From: Escherichia phage BF17
Sequence record: MW822008.1
Direction: 5' to 3' (one strand)
Length of the DNA stretch: 64,000 nucleotides
The position numbers were made by a program, and so were the translations under genes. Under the pieces are notes generated by a model. The model was not told the DNA's origin. It worked only from the letters and a program-made list of their open reading frames with translations, and searched no databases. Shown one piece after another: positions 29,247 to 64,000 of this stretch. Within the stretch, counting starts at the first letter, position 1, and every line of letters starts with the position of its first letter.

Positions 29247-29254
29247 TATTTATA
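29247..29254 (-). promoter_or_regulatory. T4-type late promoter TATAAATA (minus strand) for the endolysin gene
   Basis: Exact TATAAATA in the minus orientation, preceded by the TTTCAGTACT block seen at other late promoters; an AGGAA RBS follows. Confidence 0.5.
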
Positions 29255-29266
29255 GTACTGAAATAT

Positions 29267-35256: not shown

Positions 35257-35291
35257 CTTTTTGATTCTCCATAAGAAGGGAACATTTGATG

Positions 35292-35299
35292 TATTTATA
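35292..35299 (-). promoter_or_regulatory. T4-type late promoter TATAAATA (minus strand) for the baseplate operon
   Basis: Exact TATAAATA in the minus orientation ~36 nt upstream of ATG 35256. Confidence 0.45.
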
Positions 35300-35301
35300 C
35301 G

Positions 35302-35330
35302 TGGGACAAAGACGTTTTTGGTGCTATAAT
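35302..35330 (+). promoter_or_regulatory. Sigma70-type early promoter for the gp55-like gene
   Basis: TGGGAC, 17-bp spacer, TGcTATAAT; shares the TTTGGTGCTATAAT core with the promoter at 40008-40037. Confidence 0.5.
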
Positions 35331-35387
35331 AACATTGATGGTACAAGGAATGTACCTATTGGATTTAAAACATGGAGAGTTGAAATA

Positions 35388-36227
35388 ATGACAAATAGGC
35401 CGAAGCGTAAAAAGTATCTTAACAATGCTGATTTACTTCGTGAGATACAAAAAAGTAAAATCTCATATTGCTGGTTACTAGATAAGTGCTACAGTATGTA
35501 CGATTATATCGTTTTTGATGAATCCGAAATTACAGCAGAACTTTTAGATAAAGCTAAAGCAGCACGTATTAAACGTCTCAACAATGAAATGCTTGATGCA
35601 ATTCGTGAAAAAGAAGGTATGAGTGCGAAGAAAGCGAAGGAATACGCAGATGAGCACAATTTAGTACTAACTGATGTACCTATCGATGAGGTGGTTATTC
35701 GTGTAATTACCGATGAACATATCCCAGCAGATACAAGAGTAAATTTTGAACCATTCAAACATTACATTGTAGATGAAGAAGGTATTCTGTACGAAGTTGT
35801 TCGTTCTCACTGGAAAGGTGATCTTGAAGACGGAGAATTCAGTACTGTTCATGGTAAAATCACTAATGAACTAGGTAAAATGTTCATTAAACTGGCAGAG
35901 GAAATCTCACACAAATCCAACTATAGAAACTATACATATTTGGATGAAATGATGGGTGATGCCAGAATACAATTAGTTAAAAACGCACTTCTCTTTAAAG
36001 AGAGTATTCTTTACAAAAAAGATAAACCAGCAGTACAGTTGAATCCTTTCTCTTACTATACTTCGTTCGTTAACAATAGTTTCCGTTCGATTCTTAATAG
36101 TGAGAAAAATGTTCGTAACATCCGAGACGATTTACTTGAGATGCATGGTTTTACACCATCACACACTCGTCAAATCGAAATTGAAATGAACATGATTGAA
36201 AGGAAAAACGAAGATGGCTCTATTTGA
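35388..36227 (+). CDS. 55: Late-transcription sigma factor, gp55-like, with a ~100-aa insertion (279 aa)
   Basis: Start at ATG 35388 (RBS GGAGAG). Blocks KYLNNADLLREIQ, SNYRNYTYLDEMMGDARIQLVKNALLF and FSYYTSFVNNSFRSI match T4 gp55 as I recall it; placed before gp47/gp46 as in T4. Confidence 0.6.
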   Translation: MTNRPKRKKYLNNADLLREIQKSKISYCWLLDKCYSMYDYIVFDESEITAELLDKAKAARIKRLNNEMLDAIREKEGMSAKKAKEYADEHNLVLTDVPIDEVVIRVITDEHIPADTRVNFEPFKHYIVDEEGILYEVVRSHWKGDLEDGEFSTVHGKITNELGKMFIKLAEEISHKSNYRNYTYLDEMMGDARIQLVKNALLFKESILYKKDKPAVQLNPFSYYTSFVNNSFRSILNSEKNVRNIRDDLLEMHGFTPSHTRQIEIEMNMIERKNEDGSI

Positions 36228-46192: not shown

Positions 46193-46243
46193 ACAAAAAT
46201 CGCACTTTTTAAAGCTTTTAAAAATGGCGAAATTTTTCAGTAC

Positions 46244-46258
46244 TAAATAATATCATAC
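46244..46258 (+). promoter_or_regulatory. Late-promoter-like element TAAATAATATCATAC
   Basis: Part of a ~30-nt block nearly identical to the MCP late promoter at 48983-49010. Confidence 0.4.
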
Positions 46259-46292
46259 TTTATATGAATGTAATATATCTATGGAGGATATA

Positions 46293-47794: not shown

Positions 47795-47841
47795 TTTGTA
47801 TGTTGAAGTACAGATATTTCAGTACTTAAAGGAGAGAACGA

Positions 47842-48957: not shown

Positions 48958-48995
48958 ACATTTTAAAGCATTTTAATAATCAAATTTTTCAGTTC

Positions 48996-49003
48996 TATAA
49001 ATA
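48996..49003 (+). promoter_or_regulatory. T4-type late promoter TATAAATA for the major capsid gene
   Basis: Exact TATAAATA ~45 nt upstream of ATG 49048, inside the conserved block AAATTTTTCAGTTCTATAAATAATATCATACT. Confidence 0.55.
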
Positions 49004-49047
49004 ATATCATACTGAAAAACGAATATAACATCTTTAAGGAGATAATA

Positions 49048-50223
49048 ATGTCACAACTACTAAATGAATCCAAATGGGTAGCAGTTAAAGAGAAACTAGT
49101 TGAAGGTCTACAAGGTACTCGTAAGTCCGTAATGGAAACCGTACTTGATAACCATCGTAAACTAATGCTAAACGAATCTGCTACTTCTGGTGCAACCACC
49201 GCTGGTAACATCGCTACTCTAAACAAAGTGATTCTACCAATTATGCGTCGTGTTATGCCAACCGTAATCGCTAACGAAATCATCGGTGTTCAGCCAATGA
49301 CTGGCCCAGTTGGTCAGATCCACACCCTACGTGTTCAATATGCTGACAACGCTCCTGGTGTTATCGCTGGTGAAGAAATGCTTTCTCCATACAAAATCGC
49401 TAAGTCTTATACTGGTGACCTAAACGCAGACAACAGCAACCCACAAGCTGCTCCTACTAGCCAACTAGAAGGTACTATGGGTCGTCGCGTTAACATCCGT
49501 ATTCTACGTGAAACTGTTGAAGCGAAATCTCGTCGTCTATCTGCACGTTGGACTGTTGAATCTGCACAAGATGCACAATCCCAACATGGTATCGACGTTG
49601 AAGCTGAACTAATGGCTGCAATCGCTCAAGAAGTTACCGTTGAAATCGACCAAGAGCTACTAAGCCGTCTACGTGCACTACCTGGTGCTGCTGCTGTAAC
49701 TTATGACCAATCTAAAGTTACTGGTGTTGCGACCTTCGTTGGTGACGAGCACGCTGCTCTAGCTACCCTAATCAACCGTCAAGCGAACGAAGTTGCTCGT
49801 CGTACCAAACGTGGTGCTGCGAACTGGGCTGTTGTTTCTCCAACCGCTCTAACCATTCTACAGTCTGCAACTACTTCTAGTTTTGCACGTACTACTGAAG
49901 GTACTTTCGAAGCTCCAACTAACGTTAAATTTGTTGGTACTCTAAACAGCACCATGCGTATCTTCGTTGATACCTATGCAAGTGATGTTGAAGATATCCT
50001 AATTGGTTACAAAGGTAACGCTGAAACTGATGCTGGTGTGTTCTATTGCCCATACATCCCACTAATGGCTTCCGGTACTGTAATGGACCCTAACACTGGA
50101 GAACTCGTTACAACTTTCTTAACCAGATACGGGTATGTTCAGTTGACCGATAGCACCAGTTCACTAGGTAACGCTGCTGACTACTACAGTAAAATCGCTA
50201 TCAAAAACGTTACTTTCATGTAA
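49048..50223 (+). CDS. 23: Major capsid protein, gp23-like (HK97 fold), 391 aa
   Basis: Blocks VIANEIIGVQPM, VEAKSRRLSARWTVESAQD, EVARRTKRGAANW, GYKGNAETDAGVFYCPY and TRYG parallel T4 gp23 from memory; RBS AAGGAG; codon usage looks highly expressed. Confidence 0.9.
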   Translation: MSQLLNESKWVAVKEKLVEGLQGTRKSVMETVLDNHRKLMLNESATSGATTAGNIATLNKVILPIMRRVMPTVIANEIIGVQPMTGPVGQIHTLRVQYADNAPGVIAGEEMLSPYKIAKSYTGDLNADNSNPQAAPTSQLEGTMGRRVNIRILRETVEAKSRRLSARWTVESAQDAQSQHGIDVEAELMAAIAQEVTVEIDQELLSRLRALPGAAAVTYDQSKVTGVATFVGDEHAALATLINRQANEVARRTKRGAANWAVVSPTALTILQSATTSSFARTTEGTFEAPTNVKFVGTLNSTMRIFVDTYASDVEDILIGYKGNAETDAGVFYCPYIPLMASGTVMDPNTGELVTTFLTRYGYVQLTDSTSSLGNAADYYSKIAIKNVTFM

Positions 50224-50351: not shown

Positions 50352-51458
50352 ATGCCAAAAGTAAGTATCGACAAAGAAAAATTCATTGAAGAGATGAACA
50401 ACAAGTATGGAGCATATGGTGAATTTGATTTCAGCACTTTAGTATTCAAAGCCAGTAAGACAACAGTTAAATGTAATAAATGCGGAAAAGAAAATACTAA
50501 ACCTGCACTACGTCACATTTCATGTACATGTTCTTCATGTTATTCAAACATGTCACAGCGTTCGAACAACGAAAAATTTATCAGCACGGTAGAAACTAAA
50601 TTTGGAAAAGATAAATTCAAATTTGATAAACTAAATTACATTAACGCTATAACAAAAGTAACCATACTCTGTACAGACGAAGAACATAACGATTACTTTG
50701 AAATTACACCAAACAAATTTCTTACTGGTAAGGGATGTCCTATATGTAATAAAAATGAAGCATACAGTACTGAAGAATTCGTAGAAAAAGTAAAAGAAAA
50801 TTATGGTGATTCATTAGATTTAACTAACACAGTATATGTAAATCAAAAAACTAAAGTAACTGTGTATTGTAAAGCGGGTAACCATGAATGGACAGTTGAT
50901 CCGAAAACTTTACTTGTTGGTAAAACTGGCTGCGGTACATGTTCTGGTAAAGGTGGAAGAAGCACTGAACGTTTCATTGAACTTGTGTCGCCTATCCATA
51001 ACCATAAGTATGATTATAGTTTGGTTGAATATACTATAAGCGAGAATTATGTTGATATTGTATGTCCAACTCATGGTGTTTTCTCCCAACAACCAAAAGC
51101 ACATATGGCTGGTAAAGGATGCCCATCATGTGGTGAATATGGATATCAGCCATCAAAACCTGGATATTTCTATGTTCAAAAACTAACTAATAAAGATAAG
51201 ACAGTGTACAAGTATGGAATCACTGGTGATATGAAACGCCGTGTAAATGAGCAAAGTCGTCATTCTGGTTTTGAACACACAGTACTGATAGAACGTTACT
51301 TTGAAGATGGAAATCAACCATTACTGTTGGAAAAGTTCATAAAGAAATACATTGAAAGTGGTGTTGTAAGTACTGAAGAGTTGCCATCAGGATTTACTGA
51401 AACTTTTGATGCTAAGTATCTTGAAAGTGTTTTAGAAATTGTAAATACTTTTAAGTAA
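50352..51458 (+). CDS. T5orf172 / GIY-YIG-like domain protein with N-terminal Cys-rich tandem repeats (putative homing-type nuclease), 368 aa
   Basis: C-terminal GYFYVQKLTNKDKTVYKYGITGDMKRRVNEQ fits the T5orf172 motif; N-terminal half has at least three repeats containing GKGCPxC / GKTGCGTC. Confidence 0.55.
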   Translation: MPKVSIDKEKFIEEMNNKYGAYGEFDFSTLVFKASKTTVKCNKCGKENTKPALRHISCTCSSCYSNMSQRSNNEKFISTVETKFGKDKFKFDKLNYINAITKVTILCTDEEHNDYFEITPNKFLTGKGCPICNKNEAYSTEEFVEKVKENYGDSLDLTNTVYVNQKTKVTVYCKAGNHEWTVDPKTLLVGKTGCGTCSGKGGRSTERFIELVSPIHNHKYDYSLVEYTISENYVDIVCPTHGVFSQQPKAHMAGKGCPSCGEYGYQPSKPGYFYVQKLTNKDKTVYKYGITGDMKRRVNEQSRHSGFEHTVLIERYFEDGNQPLLLEKFIKKYIESGVVSTEELPSGFTETFDAKYLESVLEIVNTFK

Positions 51459-59426: not shown

Positions 59427-59729
59427 ATGAAAATTAAAATGATTAACGATTATGTACTGGTTCGTCAAATTGAAGCACAGAATAAAAGTACTGGTGGTAT
59501 TATCCTAGGAAACGTGGAACCACCATGTGTTGGTATGGTGATTTCAGTTGGTGAAGGTAAAGTACTACCTAATGGGCAAATTGCAGAACATAATATTTGT
59601 GTTGGTGATATGGTTGTATTCGGTCGTTCATCACTAAACACTCCTATCACTGAAGATCTTGGTGGTGGTGAAGACACATATTATGTGATGAAAATTGAAG
59701 AAATTTTTGGTAAGAAATCAAATGGCTAA
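59427..59729 (+). CDS. groES: Co-chaperonin GroES homolog (100 aa)
   Basis: MKIKMINDYVLVRQIEAQNKSTGGIILGN...VISVGEGKVLPNGQ...VGDMVVFG...YYVMKIEEI follows the GroES signature along its length; RBS GGAGG. Confidence 0.8.
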   Translation: MKIKMINDYVLVRQIEAQNKSTGGIILGNVEPPCVGMVISVGEGKVLPNGQIAEHNICVGDMVVFGRSSLNTPITEDLGGGEDTYYVMKIEEIFGKKSNG

Positions 59730-60447
59730 AAAAAGGTTTATTCCTTTCTGGATGGTCCCCGCTCATTGGGGACTTTCTGGTAAAGCGAAAGAGATTGCGA
59801 AAGCATACTACTATAACGATGATTATGAAGCTGATATGTTAGTTGCAGAACTTACATATCTAACACCATATGAAGTTGATGTAGCACAGTTGGATATCAA
59901 AAAGAAATACAATGTATTAGAAACTCTTGATTATCTAATAGCACAGGCAGATGTACAATTGAAGTATTCCAAGATTACCCGTGATGAGTATAATGTAAAA
60001 TTACTTGATGCTAAATTAAGTACTGGTGCAATTACTCAAAAAGAGTATGATATGGAAGTAATCGAACTAATGCCTGATGGTGATGACAAACGTCTTAAAG
60101 CTATCGAGTTTGCATATCGTTATGAAGAGATTACACAACAAGAGTATTCAAAGGAAATCTTTACTTTACGTAAAGAACCTTGGATTGATTTGGATGTAGT
60201 ACTTAATCCAGAAACAAATGAAGTTGAATTTGTTTTTGATTATAATGAATACTTTTGGAAAAAGTTAAAAGCGGAAGGTCATCCAGGTAATGACGAAGAA
60301 GAAATTATTGACAACTTCGTTAGAGACATGGGGCGTAAACTAGCTACGGATGATTTCAGTGATGATTATGACGTAAAGCTAGTGAATGCGAACGAAGGGT
60401 TAGAGAATCTACCTGGTTTACCTGAAGGGTTCCGTTCATACAAATAA
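59722..60447 (+). CDS. Hypothetical protein with three ITxxEY repeats (SHOCT-like); start uncertain (59695 or 59722)
   Basis: Repeats KITRDEYNVKLL, AITQKEYDMEVI, EITQQEYSKEIF; overlaps the GroES gene end by 8 nt. Confidence 0.4.
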   Translation: MAKKRFIPFWMVPAHWGLSGKAKEIAKAYYYNDDYEADMLVAELTYLTPYEVDVAQLDIKKKYNVLETLDYLIAQADVQLKYSKITRDEYNVKLLDAKLSTGAITQKEYDMEVIELMPDGDDKRLKAIEFAYRYEEITQQEYSKEIFTLRKEPWIDLDVVLNPETNEVEFVFDYNEYFWKKLKAEGHPGNDEEEIIDNFVRDMGRKLATDDFSDDYDVKLVNANEGLENLPGLPEGFRSYK

Positions 60448-60448
60448 A

Positions 60449-60480
60449 AAAAGGAGAGCAAAAGCTCTCCTTTTCTTTTA
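60449..60480. terminator. Bidirectional intrinsic terminator (near copy of the one at 14684-14715)
   Basis: aaaaaa-AGGAGAGC-aaaa-GCTCTCCT-tttctttt. Confidence 0.75.
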
Positions 60481-60491
60481 TCTTTAATTTA

Positions 60492-61181
60492 TTAAACCAT
60501 CGCTGGGATGAATTTGAATAGTTTGATACCGAAGTCACCAGCAGCATCAGCAGCTTGGGAACGTAGAACAACTTCAGTAACACCATCTTTAGCGAGTAGT
60601 GGAACTGCGGTTAGGTCATCAATTAGTAGACGGCCTTCTTCGATCTCAGTACTTGGAACGCCTTGGAAAGATTGAATATCTTTATCAAATACGTTAGCAC
60701 GTTCAACGAGGAAAGTAACTACTGAAGCACTAGCGATATCAACAGACCCAACACTTAGGATACCGTCAGCAGCGTTGGTAAAACCAGTAACTGCAAATGG
60801 CTCAACGTCGTTGCCAGCGATTTCGGAAGTAGCGATGATAACTGCACGTTGTTGAACAACATCAACGATACGTTTAACGTTAGTTTGTGCAGCGTAAGCA
60901 GCGTTATAATCAGCTTCTAGAGTTGCTGCTTCAAATGGAGTACCATCGATACGGATGATACCTTTTTCGTTTAGATATGCAACGATTTCATCAGCTACGT
61001 CAGTGTTTAGGAAACGTTGTAGACCAGCGAAAGAACCAACTGCACCAGTAACACGCACGTTAACATTACCAATTTTACTAATTGCGATAGATGCTAGGGC
61101 GTTTTTGCCACAGAAGTAACCTAGAATTTTATCAAAGGAATAACCATTGATACGTTCAAAAGAAGTATTAGTATTAGACAT
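60492..61181 (-). CDS. Abundant late protein, paralog A (229 aa); probable virion structural protein
   Basis: Shares QQRAVIIATSE and ERANVFDK with paralog B; RBS-like GGGGGA; codon usage biased. Confidence 0.5.
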   Translation of the reverse strand: MSNTNTSFERINGYSFDKILGYFCGKNALASIAISKIGNVNVRVTGAVGSFAGLQRFLNTDVADEIVAYLNEKGIIRIDGTPFEAATLEADYNAAYAAQTNVKRIVDVVQQRAVIIATSEIAGNDVEPFAVTGFTNAADGILSVGSVDIASASVVTFLVERANVFDKDIQSFQGVPSTEIEEGRLLIDDLTAVPLLAKDGVTEVVLRSQAADAAGDFGIKLFKFIPAMV

Positions 61182-61196
61182 ATTGTAGTCCCCCTA

Positions 61197-61796
61197 TTAT
61201 AGTTGTACTGGTAGAGCAGCACGAACTTTAATTGCAACAGCGTCAGCGGCAGCAGCATCACCAACACCATCAGTACCTAGAGCAACATAAGATTTGGTAC
61301 GGAAGAATTTAGCTTGTGCAATAGCTTTAGCTAGTTCAACAGTTGGATCAACTGGAACAGAGTAAGCAGCACCTGGGCGAACTTCTTGTTTGTCAAATAC
61401 GTCTTGACGTTCACAGATGAAGGTTAGAGCAACAGAACCAGCACCACCTGTAACATCAGCACCACTAGTACCAAACGCGATTACGTTACCACCAACGGTT
61501 TTAAAGTCAGCAGGGATAACAACAGCGGTGTCTAGAGCTAGTACGGAAGTAGTAACTAGTACTGCACGTTGTTGTAGTAGTTGGGTAATCATGAATTGGT
61601 TGTATTGAGCATTGCTGATTGCAGTTTGTAGTGCTTCATCTTGAATTTCGGAACCGTCAGAAGTAACAGCGGTAGTACCAACTTCAACATCTGCTGGTAG
61701 ATCAACAACGATGGTTACGAAACCATTGTTACCACCCCAGTATTCACGAGCAGTAGCAGACATACCATAGTTACGGTTAAAAGAATTAAGACTCAT
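61197..61796 (-). CDS. Abundant late protein, paralog B (199 aa); probable virion structural protein
   Basis: RBS AAGGAG; shares QQRAVLVTTS and ERQDVFDK with paralog A. Confidence 0.5.
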   Translation of the reverse strand: MSLNSFNRNYGMSATAREYWGGNNGFVTIVVDLPADVEVGTTAVTSDGSEIQDEALQTAISNAQYNQFMITQLLQQRAVLVTTSVLALDTAVVIPADFKTVGGNVIAFGTSGADVTGGAGSVALTFICERQDVFDKQEVRPGAAYSVPVDPTVELAKAIAQAKFFRTKSYVALGTDGVGDAAAADAVAIKVRAALPVQL

Positions 61797-61838
61797 AAAA
61801 ATCTCCTTGTCAAATTTTGTGCAGGAACACCCTGCTTA

Positions 61839-61853
61839 ATATTATTTATCAAA
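61839..61853 (-). promoter_or_regulatory. Late-promoter-like element, proximal copy (minus strand reads TTTGATAAATAATAT)
   Basis: 15-nt direct repeat atattatttatcaaa, copy 1; GATAAATAATAT resembles the late promoter blocks elsewhere. Confidence 0.4.
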
Positions 61854-61901
61854 AAATATAAACCACATTTAAATTTAAGGCAATATTCCCTGATCTCTAT
61901 G

Positions 61902-61916
61902 ATATTATTTATCAAA
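61902..61916 (-). promoter_or_regulatory. Late-promoter-like element, distal copy
   Basis: Second exact copy of atattatttatcaaa, 63 bp from the first. Confidence 0.35.
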
Positions 61917-61918
61917 TC

Positions 61919-64000
<2,082 letters not shown>

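Follow-up and report, generated by a model that had tools for sequence, protein, structure and literature searches.

What are the two genes that run against their neighbours in a replication region of Escherichia phage BF17, and what part might their products play in the phage particle? The 64,000-nucleotide stretch of DNA analysed here (from sequence record MW822008.1, hereafter called the window) carries two adjacent minus-strand open reading frames (ORFs) for proteins of 229 and 199 residues, exactly as described in an initial annotation made from the sequence. As that annotation had also stated, they are set among plus-strand replication genes, namely those for DNA polymerase, the clamp, GroES and RNase H, with the terminase genes 2 kb beyond. 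We find that the two genes are true paralogs and that their orthologs are abundant virion proteins in related phages. Tentatively, we favour a role for them as capsid decoration or cement proteins at the head surface, produced from a late operon of their own.

Nucleotide comparison of a 2-kb region around the pair gave 100% identity with Escherichia phages Turkey3 and WPEC5, 99.3-99.8% identity with EC.P1, WPEC3, fEgEco12, TH47, Ecwhy_1 and vB_Ec-M-J, and ~82% identity with the group of 121Q, PBECO4, phAPEC6 and G17 (genus Asteriusvirus). Judged by these identities, the source phage is an Asteriusvirus-like (RaK2-like) jumbo coliphage. Members of the RaK2-like group are jumbo myoviruses with genomes of 350-385 kb, in which the genes for replication and morphogenesis resemble those of T4. 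According to the annotation of fEgEco12, the window encodes tail fibres, baseplate, a late sigma factor, portal, prohead protease and the capsid protein, and the capsid block is followed in order by DNA polymerase, the clamp, GroES, the pair, RNase H and terminase.

Two paralogs of a single phage protein family

The paralogy of the two proteins, initially proposed from short shared blocks, is borne out by pairwise alignment. BLASTP aligns the 199-residue protein with the 229-residue protein at E=9e-7, with 34% identity over 93 residues that include the QQRAV..TS and ER..VFDK blocks. In a MAFFT alignment of the family, the two paralogs are 27% identical over their full length and have invariant positions in common from the N-terminus (R, G, G.N) through the C-terminal K, the larger protein harbouring an inserted helical segment of ~30 residues relative to the smaller one. 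Both match the profile phrog_9326, named 'virion structural protein', over its full length (199 residues: E=2.6e-82, profile positions 1-195 of 195; 229 residues: E=3.4e-81, profile positions 2-195 of 195). For both proteins, Pfam returned only sub-threshold noise (GLMA_C and OxRdtase_C, E ~0.03-0.05), and sequence-based profile searches of the PDB gave nothing below E=0.4.

We collected 73 phage records of this family, all from the RaK2-like clade, in phages of Escherichia, Klebsiella, Salmonella, Erwinia, Yersinia, Serratia, Cronobacter, Pectobacterium, Xanthomonas and Vibrio. When 1.84 billion representative proteins were searched exhaustively with the family profile, only 42 clusters (at 50% identity) emerged, indicating that the family is small and confined to the RaK2-like phage group. 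The same search, in a library that carries no names, revealed no link to a family of known function.

Structure prediction and fold search, which had been proposed as a check with the initial annotation, succeeded in their first part but not in their second. AlphaFold2 models were obtained with mean confidence scores (pLDDT) of 77.9 and 79.6 for the 199- and 229-residue proteins, respectively, and they show alpha/beta proteins with a ferredoxin-like core and one long helix. Foldseek searches of the PDB returned only ribosomal-protein noise (TM scores ≤0.25), and a fold search of BFVD found family members and uncharacterised phage proteins; no solved or annotated relative of either model emerged from these fold searches. 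By sequence and fold, the pair belongs only to its own family, PHROG 9326.

The pair is 73-80% identical to its orthologs in RaK2 and the 121Q group, and ~60% identical to those in CBB. RaK2 gp107w/gp106w, phAPEC6 gp210/gp211 and CBB_271/270 are direct orthologs, with the same tandem order, strand, place and sizes; they also have the late motif upstream and the codon bias described below, with no difference of kind. In fEgEco12, G17, phAPEC6, RaK2 and CBB, the tandem pair is on the opposite strand between a cluster of Zn-ribbon, GroES and structural genes and the RNase H gene rnh. The same layout beside rnh is found in a Vibrio phage, with three copies, and in a distant metagenomic contig, with two. 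Thus, at least two tandem paralogs adjoin rnh wherever gene context was examined, and this retention of the gene pair and of its place next to rnh, even in distant relatives, is newly described here. In the Vibrio phage (2.275.O._10N.286.54.E11, L008 1135-3206), the product NVP2275O_488 of the three tandem paralogs fits the family profile with 97% probability, and genes 488 and 487 each have an ATAAATA motif and a hairpin of their own upstream.

Sequence divergence within the clade is much larger for the pair than for the capsid protein. Identity to the phAPEC6 orthologs is 80% for the pair versus 98.7% for the capsid protein, and identity to those of the Vibrio phage is ~40% versus 79%.

Abundance of the pair in virions

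Virion proteomics, another check suggested at the outset, is already provided by published data on orthologs (PMC7247149, PMC5259590, PMC3622015). Presence in virions was shown in three phages, RaK2, CBB and phAPEC6, which refutes the proposal that the pair might be abundant non-structural proteins. In phAPEC6, the peptide coverages of gp210 and gp211 are 69.8 and 69.9%, compared with 74.9% for the capsid protein and 68.0% for the sheath, and the pair is surpassed in coverage by just two of the 62 virion proteins, gp347 (75.2%) and the capsid protein (PMC7247149). The coverage of CBB_270, 91.3%, is the highest in the virion table of that phage, and that of CBB_271 is 56.4% (PMC5259590). The RaK2 proteins gp107w and gp106w were detected in virions in 2013, when they were called 'two distantly related proteins' and noted as abundant. 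Their gel migration was close to the predicted masses, from which the authors concluded that they are not cleaved during maturation, and homologues of the pair were also reported in GAP32 (PMC3622015). The existence of an abundant paralogous virion pair is therefore already known, and has been in print since 2013.

Codon usage agrees with the capsid-like bias claimed for the two genes. Their effective numbers of codons (ENC), 29.9 and 28.9, are below those of all other ORFs in the window (about 50 in total), and their codon choices are those of the gene for the major capsid protein (MCP), which is at 49048-50223 on the plus strand and has an ENC of 31.7-32.1. By comparison, the gene for the sheath (150 copies) has an ENC of 33.7, and the tube-like genes have values of 39-42. 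With the capsid gene as the reference, the codon adaptation index is 0.67-0.75 for the pair and 0.56 for the sheath gene. CTA accounts for 89% of the leucine codons in the pair (25/28) and 84% in the MCP gene (26/31), versus 24% in the rest of the window; the corresponding shares of ATC among isoleucine codons are 69, 77 and 25%. Preferences for CTA, CGT, GGT, GCT, GTT, ATC and CCA are common to the pair and the capsid gene. The orthologs in RaK2, CBB and the Vibrio phage are also more codon-biased than their neighbours. Such a codon bias, of the capsid class, suggests a copy number in the hundreds to thousands, and therefore a location in the head.

Of note, CTA is the rarest leucine codon of E. 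coli, yet it is strongly preferred in the most biased genes. It represents 46 of the 66 leucine codons in the sheath gene of fEgEco12 and 18 of the 24 in its clamp gene, and it is preferred in the RaK2 and CBB orthologs as well. We considered a phage tRNA-Leu as the cause of this preference and discarded it, as none is reported for fEgEco12 or RaK2 and none is present in the scanned loci. Only 6 tRNAs are found in fEgEco12 (2 Ser, Met, Asn and 2 Thr), and RaK2 has none for Leu.

Two late-promoter-like elements and a conserved 5' hairpin

The two exact copies initially reported 63 bp apart upstream of the pair correspond to the 15-mer ATATTATTTATCAAA (positions in Table 1). The 12-mer GATAAATAATAT occurs in the window only at these two sites, and its nearest variant, TATAAATAATAT, lies 5' of the capsid gene. 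The distal element has ATAAATAATATCATA in common with the promoter region of the capsid gene; in the proximal element, TTGATAAATAA is invariant across genera.

The resemblance of these copies to late promoters, also part of the initial annotation, is supported by the distribution of their ATAAATA core. This 7-mer occurs 19 times in the window, and 16 of these occurrences fall within the 5.2% of the sequence that is intergenic, compared with 4.2 ± 2.1 in shuffled intergenic DNA. All 16 are oriented and located 6-109 nt upstream of a start codon, mostly of structural genes, and the 199-residue protein gene is the only one in the window with two of them upstream. In CBB and GAP32, ATAAATA was derived as the consensus of late promoters and likened to the T4 motif TATAAATA (PMC5259590). 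Both copies read GATAAATA, a 7/8 match to the T4-type motif with G instead of T as the first base. The strict T4 motif is not enriched in the window (5 found versus 7 expected), unlike the 7-mer. A gene for a gp55-like late sigma factor is present at 35289-36227, with matches to phrog_12791 ('sigma factor for late transcription', E=1e-152) and phrog_234 (E=1.5e-16). Like the gp55-dependent late promoters of the T4 type, the elements of the pair appear to lack a -35 element and to be at the expected distance from the start codon. They differ from a single T4-type promoter in that there are two copies 63 bp apart, conserved in the enterobacterial members of the clade.

We aligned the upstream regions of 10 phages from four genera (Asteriusvirus, Alcyoneusvirus, Mimasvirus and Eneladusvirus) plus unclassified ones. 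Both ATAAATA cores are invariant in this alignment while the spacer between them drifts, indicating two separately maintained elements rather than a recent duplication. The flanks of the cores differ in relatives, with for instance GATAAATAACTTT as the proximal copy of G17, and the identity over 15 nt is thus peculiar to the present lineage. The notion of a duplicated promoter therefore stands as regards the two copies, but not as regards a recent duplication event. Late timing and the use of both promoters are suggested by these motifs.

The leader that follows the proximal element is predicted to begin with a hairpin. In T4 late promoters, the core is about 6 nt upstream of the transcription start, and with the same geometry the predicted start falls ~2 nt before the stem. 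Pairing of the GCAGG/CCTGC stem holds in 100% of cells over 10 sequences. In RaK2, the stem reads GTAAG/CTTAC, which amounts to two compensatory pairs, and different hairpins are found at this place in Vibrio phage 2.275.O, where they precede two genes (GCCAG/CTGGC and CCAGG/CCTGG), and in the metagenomic relative (GCAGC/GCTGC). At -9.2 kcal/mol, the hairpin of the present phage is stable, and no other stable hairpin in the window begins 3 nt or less from a predicted late start. The invariant part of the leader 3' of the proximal element reads TTAAGCAGG-loop-CCTGCAC.AAATT.GACAAGGAGATTTTTATG. As a 5'-terminal stem-loop is a classic protection against 5'-end-dependent decay in E. coli, the hairpin may by analogy stabilise the transcript. 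The conservation across genera of the two late-promoter cores and of the covarying 5' hairpin is newly described here. We also considered whether the conserved TTAAGCAGG, which reads TGCTTAA on the plus strand, is a MotA box, and rejected this because RaK2 has TACTTAA yet keeps the hairpin through compensatory changes. Rfam searches gave no family above threshold, and their weak matches are all on the terminator stem.

No promoter motif is found between the two paralog genes, and no terminator-like site there in a terminator scan of 60300-62100. The locus would form a self-contained late operon of a RaK2-like jumbo coliphage. It would open with two T4-type late promoters in tandem and a stabilising hairpin at the 5' end, continue with a strong ribosome-binding site, the gene for the 199-residue protein and that for the 229-residue protein, and close with a bidirectional terminator. 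Its predicted output would be two acidic paralogous proteins in roughly equimolar and very large amounts, both of which would be built uncleaved into the virion.

At several other late-promoter-like sites of the window, we identified an extra upstream box, TTTCAGTAC or TTTCAGTTC, beside the (T)ATAAATA core. These sites are at 48984-49008 (capsid gene), 46235-46260 (gene for a 280-residue acidic head protein), 29247-29262 (gene for a 162-residue baseplate protein) and 47820-47835 (gene for a 371-residue scaffold-like protein). The two promoters of the pair are devoid of this box, which may mark a subclass of late promoters.

Possible locations in the virion

The heads of phAPEC6 and 121Q carry, on a T=28 shell, an elongated second protein layer without an assigned protein, as resolved in 10 Å maps (PMC7247149, PMC5646251). 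The density of this layer contacts its neighbour across axes of local two-fold symmetry and forms a hexagonal net (PMC7247149). Our tentative preference is for the pair as capsid accessory (decoration or cement) proteins that would form this layer, at a copy number close to that of the MCP. Several properties favour the outside of the head. The proteins are unprocessed and lack N-terminal LxE sites, with no [LIV]xE protease site in the first 60 residues of either one; their isoelectric point (pI) is an acidic 4.5; and they are encoded outside the prohead module in a late unit of their own, like T4 soc and hoc. They also combine a fast-evolving body with a very conserved, disordered N-terminal arm: the N-terminal 30 residues of the 199-residue protein are its most conserved part, yet they are predicted to be disordered. 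Such an arm, in the models, suits docking on a conserved capsid partner.

In the capsid protein, by comparison, an LNE|S site is present at residues 41-43, consistent with L-x-E cleavage of the T4 gp21 type and with the reported maturation of its 121Q counterpart from 42.2 to about 37 kDa (PMC5646251). Its neighbours, the 280-residue (pI 4.05) and 371-residue proteins, harbour 5 and 25 L-x-E sites, respectively, like T4 core or scaffold proteins.

Soc and Hoc of T4, small and highly antigenic outer capsid proteins, serve as our working analogy. Both are head accessory proteins that are abundant and unprocessed, and their genes lie apart from the head-morphogenesis cluster, amid genes of other functions, with late promoters of their own of the TATAAATA type. 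However, the pair shows no likeness to them in sequence or fold (Pfam, PDB), and it differs in size (21-24 kDa), in its alpha/beta fold, in consisting of two paralogs and in its conservation throughout the clade. The geometry of the phAPEC6/121Q layer also recalls epsilon15 gp10 and the BPP-1 cement protein, dimeric 'staple' proteins arranged at local two-folds. This likeness to known structures is one of geometry only; the pair has no fold match with these proteins, and a heterodimer of paralogs would be unusual. Equimolar production and the pairing of the density across the local two-fold nevertheless suggest, as a speculation, a heterodimeric cement unit. The further idea that the paralogs form such a unit, whose fold would be without a solved relative and would represent a new capsid decoration family, with the long N-terminal arm docked on the nearly invariant capsid protein, is a rather doubtful extension of the decoration hypothesis. 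The high-resolution capsid of phiKp24 was examined as a possible solved relative and set aside: it has T=27, a 597-residue capsid protein and no separate decoration protein, and as it belongs to a different phage type it is not informative for the pair.

A number of observations weigh against the assignment of the pair to the surface layer. Surface placement is a step that we infer. Internal proteins would be just as compatible with the abundance and fast evolution of the pair, and the conserved N-terminal segment could be a capsid-targeting signal. Peptide coverage is a rough proxy for copy number, and other small phAPEC6 proteins with high coverage, gp347 (75%), gp306c (66%) and gp315c (69%), compete for the same density, which the phAPEC6 authors also allowed to be part of the capsid protein itself (PMC7247149). 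The folds match no known decoration protein in PDB and BFVD searches, and neither sequence nor fold resembles the decoration families lambda gpD/SHP, T4 Soc, Hoc, Ig-like or beta-tulip. Finally, a literature search on transcriptomes of the genus returned nothing useful regarding either promoter. Among the roles initially listed, decoration protein is the best fit, but it has no counterpart among known decoration folds. As all membership tests for tube, Soc, Hoc and gpD failed, the term denotes a functional analogy rather than a classification.

If not on the surface, the pair might be inside the head. An inner body revealed by bubblegram imaging exists in phAPEC6 and 121Q, and its proteins were not named (PMC7247149, PMC5646251). 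It is a rod of 91 x 18 nm around which the genome would be spooled, and by our estimate its size requires hundreds of copies of 20-25 kDa, in keeping with the abundance and codon bias of the pair. In such a body, the 30 conserved N-terminal residues could target the proteins to the capsid, and their fast evolution would also fit proteins that are perhaps ejected with the DNA. The inner-body proteins of phiKZ, a jumbo phage with a bubblegram-positive rod, are similarly abundant and head-internal, and they include paralogous sets. They are, however, proteolytically processed, whereas RaK2 gp106w and gp107w are found uncleaved at their predicted masses and CBB_270 is covered at 91%, with no sign of processing of the T4-IP or phiKZ type. 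Neither member of the pair has N-terminal LxE sites, unlike the core and scaffold genes next to the protease, which have many; both genes are outside the prohead module; and a pI of 4.5 is unexpected for a protein embedded in DNA. In addition, the phAPEC6 authors found no phAPEC6 protein similar in sequence to the phiKZ inner-body proteins, and they favoured RCC1-like proteins for this role (PMC7247149). We regard an inner-body role as the main alternative, though an unlikely one.

It is more improbable still that the two paralogs occupy different minor sites of the capsid, one as a fibre anchor at hexamer centres and the other as a vertex dome that replaces the capsid protein, rather than making up a continuous cement layer. 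The phAPEC6 and 121Q heads do show a protein at each hexamer centre and a globular dome, not made of capsid protein, at each vertex, and the authors found no vertex protein in silico (PMC7247149, PMC5646251). Two proteins for two sites would be an economical reading. Nevertheless, a vertex protein in 55 copies needs neither a codon bias of the capsid class nor equal co-translation from one operon, the Vibrio relative has three paralogs, and nothing positively links either protein to either site.

Least credible is a tail function. On the basis of size, beta-propensity and abundance, the RaK2 authors proposed that one of ORF106w and ORF107w encodes the tail tube (PMC3622015), a candidate that the initial annotation listed as well. 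The tube-like proteins encoded beside the sheath gene have low coverage in phAPEC6 virions (gp273c-275c, 9-30%; PMC7247149), and they have no Pfam match, which means that their assignment rests on PHROG profiles only. Still, three genes directly 3' of the sheath gene match tail-tube PHROGs (phrog_4542, phrog_13438 and phrog_45) with E-values of 1e-80 to 1e-225, while no tube family was matched by the pair in Pfam and PHROG searches and its models lack the beta-sandwich tube fold (T4 gp19/Hcp). The codon bias of the pair exceeds that of the sheath, although a tube protein is needed in the same number as the sheath, and the pair diverges ~15 times faster than the capsid protein (~20 versus 1.3% from phAPEC6), unlike tube proteins. 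The tail-tube role is thus disfavoured. The variant in which the pair decorates the sheath or forms the base of hair fibres fares no better: according to the CBB authors, no whiskers were described for RaK2 and those of GAP32 were left in doubt (PMC5259590), and as RaK2 has the pair, it is not specific to hairs, which makes a hair-fibre role unlikely.

Features of the locus and neighbouring genes

The features of the operon are collected in Table 1. Its terminator is common to the pair and the convergent gene at 59722-60447, and the annotation of phage G17 lists it as a terminator as well.

Table 1. Positions, in the window, of the paralog genes and of the predicted elements that accompany them
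Feature	Position	Strand	Description
Distal late-promoter-like element	61902-61916	minus	Reads TTTGATAAATAATAT; core ATAAATA at 61906-61912, 109 nt before the start codon
Proximal late-promoter-like element	61839-61853	minus	Core ATAAATA at 61843-61849, 46 nt before the start codon
5'-leader hairpin	61821-61835	minus	GCAGG-GTGTT-CCTGC; begins ~2 nt after the predicted start site
Shine-Dalgarno AAGGAG of the 199-residue protein gene	61803-61808	minus	Inside the conserved leader GACAAGGAGATTTTTATG; invariant in the alignment
Gene for the 199-residue paralog	61197-61796	minus	20.8 kDa, pI 4.5; ortholog of RaK2 gp107w, phAPEC6 gp210, CBB_271
Intergenic spacer	61182-61196	minus	15 nt; holds the ribosome-binding site GGGGGA of the 229-residue protein gene
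Gene for the 229-residue paralog	60492-61181	minus	24.3 kDa, pI 4.5; ortholog of RaK2 gp106w, phAPEC6 gp211, CBB_270
Bidirectional intrinsic terminator	60446-60477	both	Stem of 11-14 pairs, T-runs on both strands

The convergent plus-strand neighbour codes for a protein of 241 residues (pI 4.6) that matches phrog_13349, 'virion structural protein'. The RaK2 and CBB annotations list it as a virion protein (ORF105 and CBB_269, respectively), but it is missing from the phAPEC6 virion table. The gene has an ordinary codon usage (ENC 43.5) and is part of the plus-strand GroES operon.

On the other side of the pair, a conserved extended -10 element, TGCTATAAT, is found on the plus strand at 61939-61947, ~60 nt 5' of position 62008, where rnh truly starts. 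In ten phages, the complement of this element, ATTATAGCACAT, hardly varies, and the element probably serves rnh. A longer rnh ORF, which starts at 61936, opens within this element, and that start is probably not the real one.

Directly 3' of the capsid gene, an ORF at 50352-51458 on the plus strand codes for a 368-residue HNH-type endonuclease (phrog_681, E=1.6e-77; phrog_559). In fEgEco12, nothing intervenes between the capsid gene and a gene for a 116-residue protein, which here stands after the endonuclease gene. This arrangement resembles a homing-endonuclease insertion whose presence differs among near-identical phages.

Implications

The pair forms a core set of major virion proteins that defines the clade of RaK2-like phages and does not represent a new system, which closes the annotation question. 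The tail-tube suggestion of 2013 should be dropped. For RaK2-like heads, the two proteins provide two concrete candidates for the 1620-copy surface layer or for the inner body. If they indeed represent a new cement fold, they would be one more family that reinforces very large shells of the HK97 type. In addition, the conserved unit made up of the two promoters and the 5' hairpin could be put to use, in engineered phages of the group, as a compact cassette that drives very high late expression.

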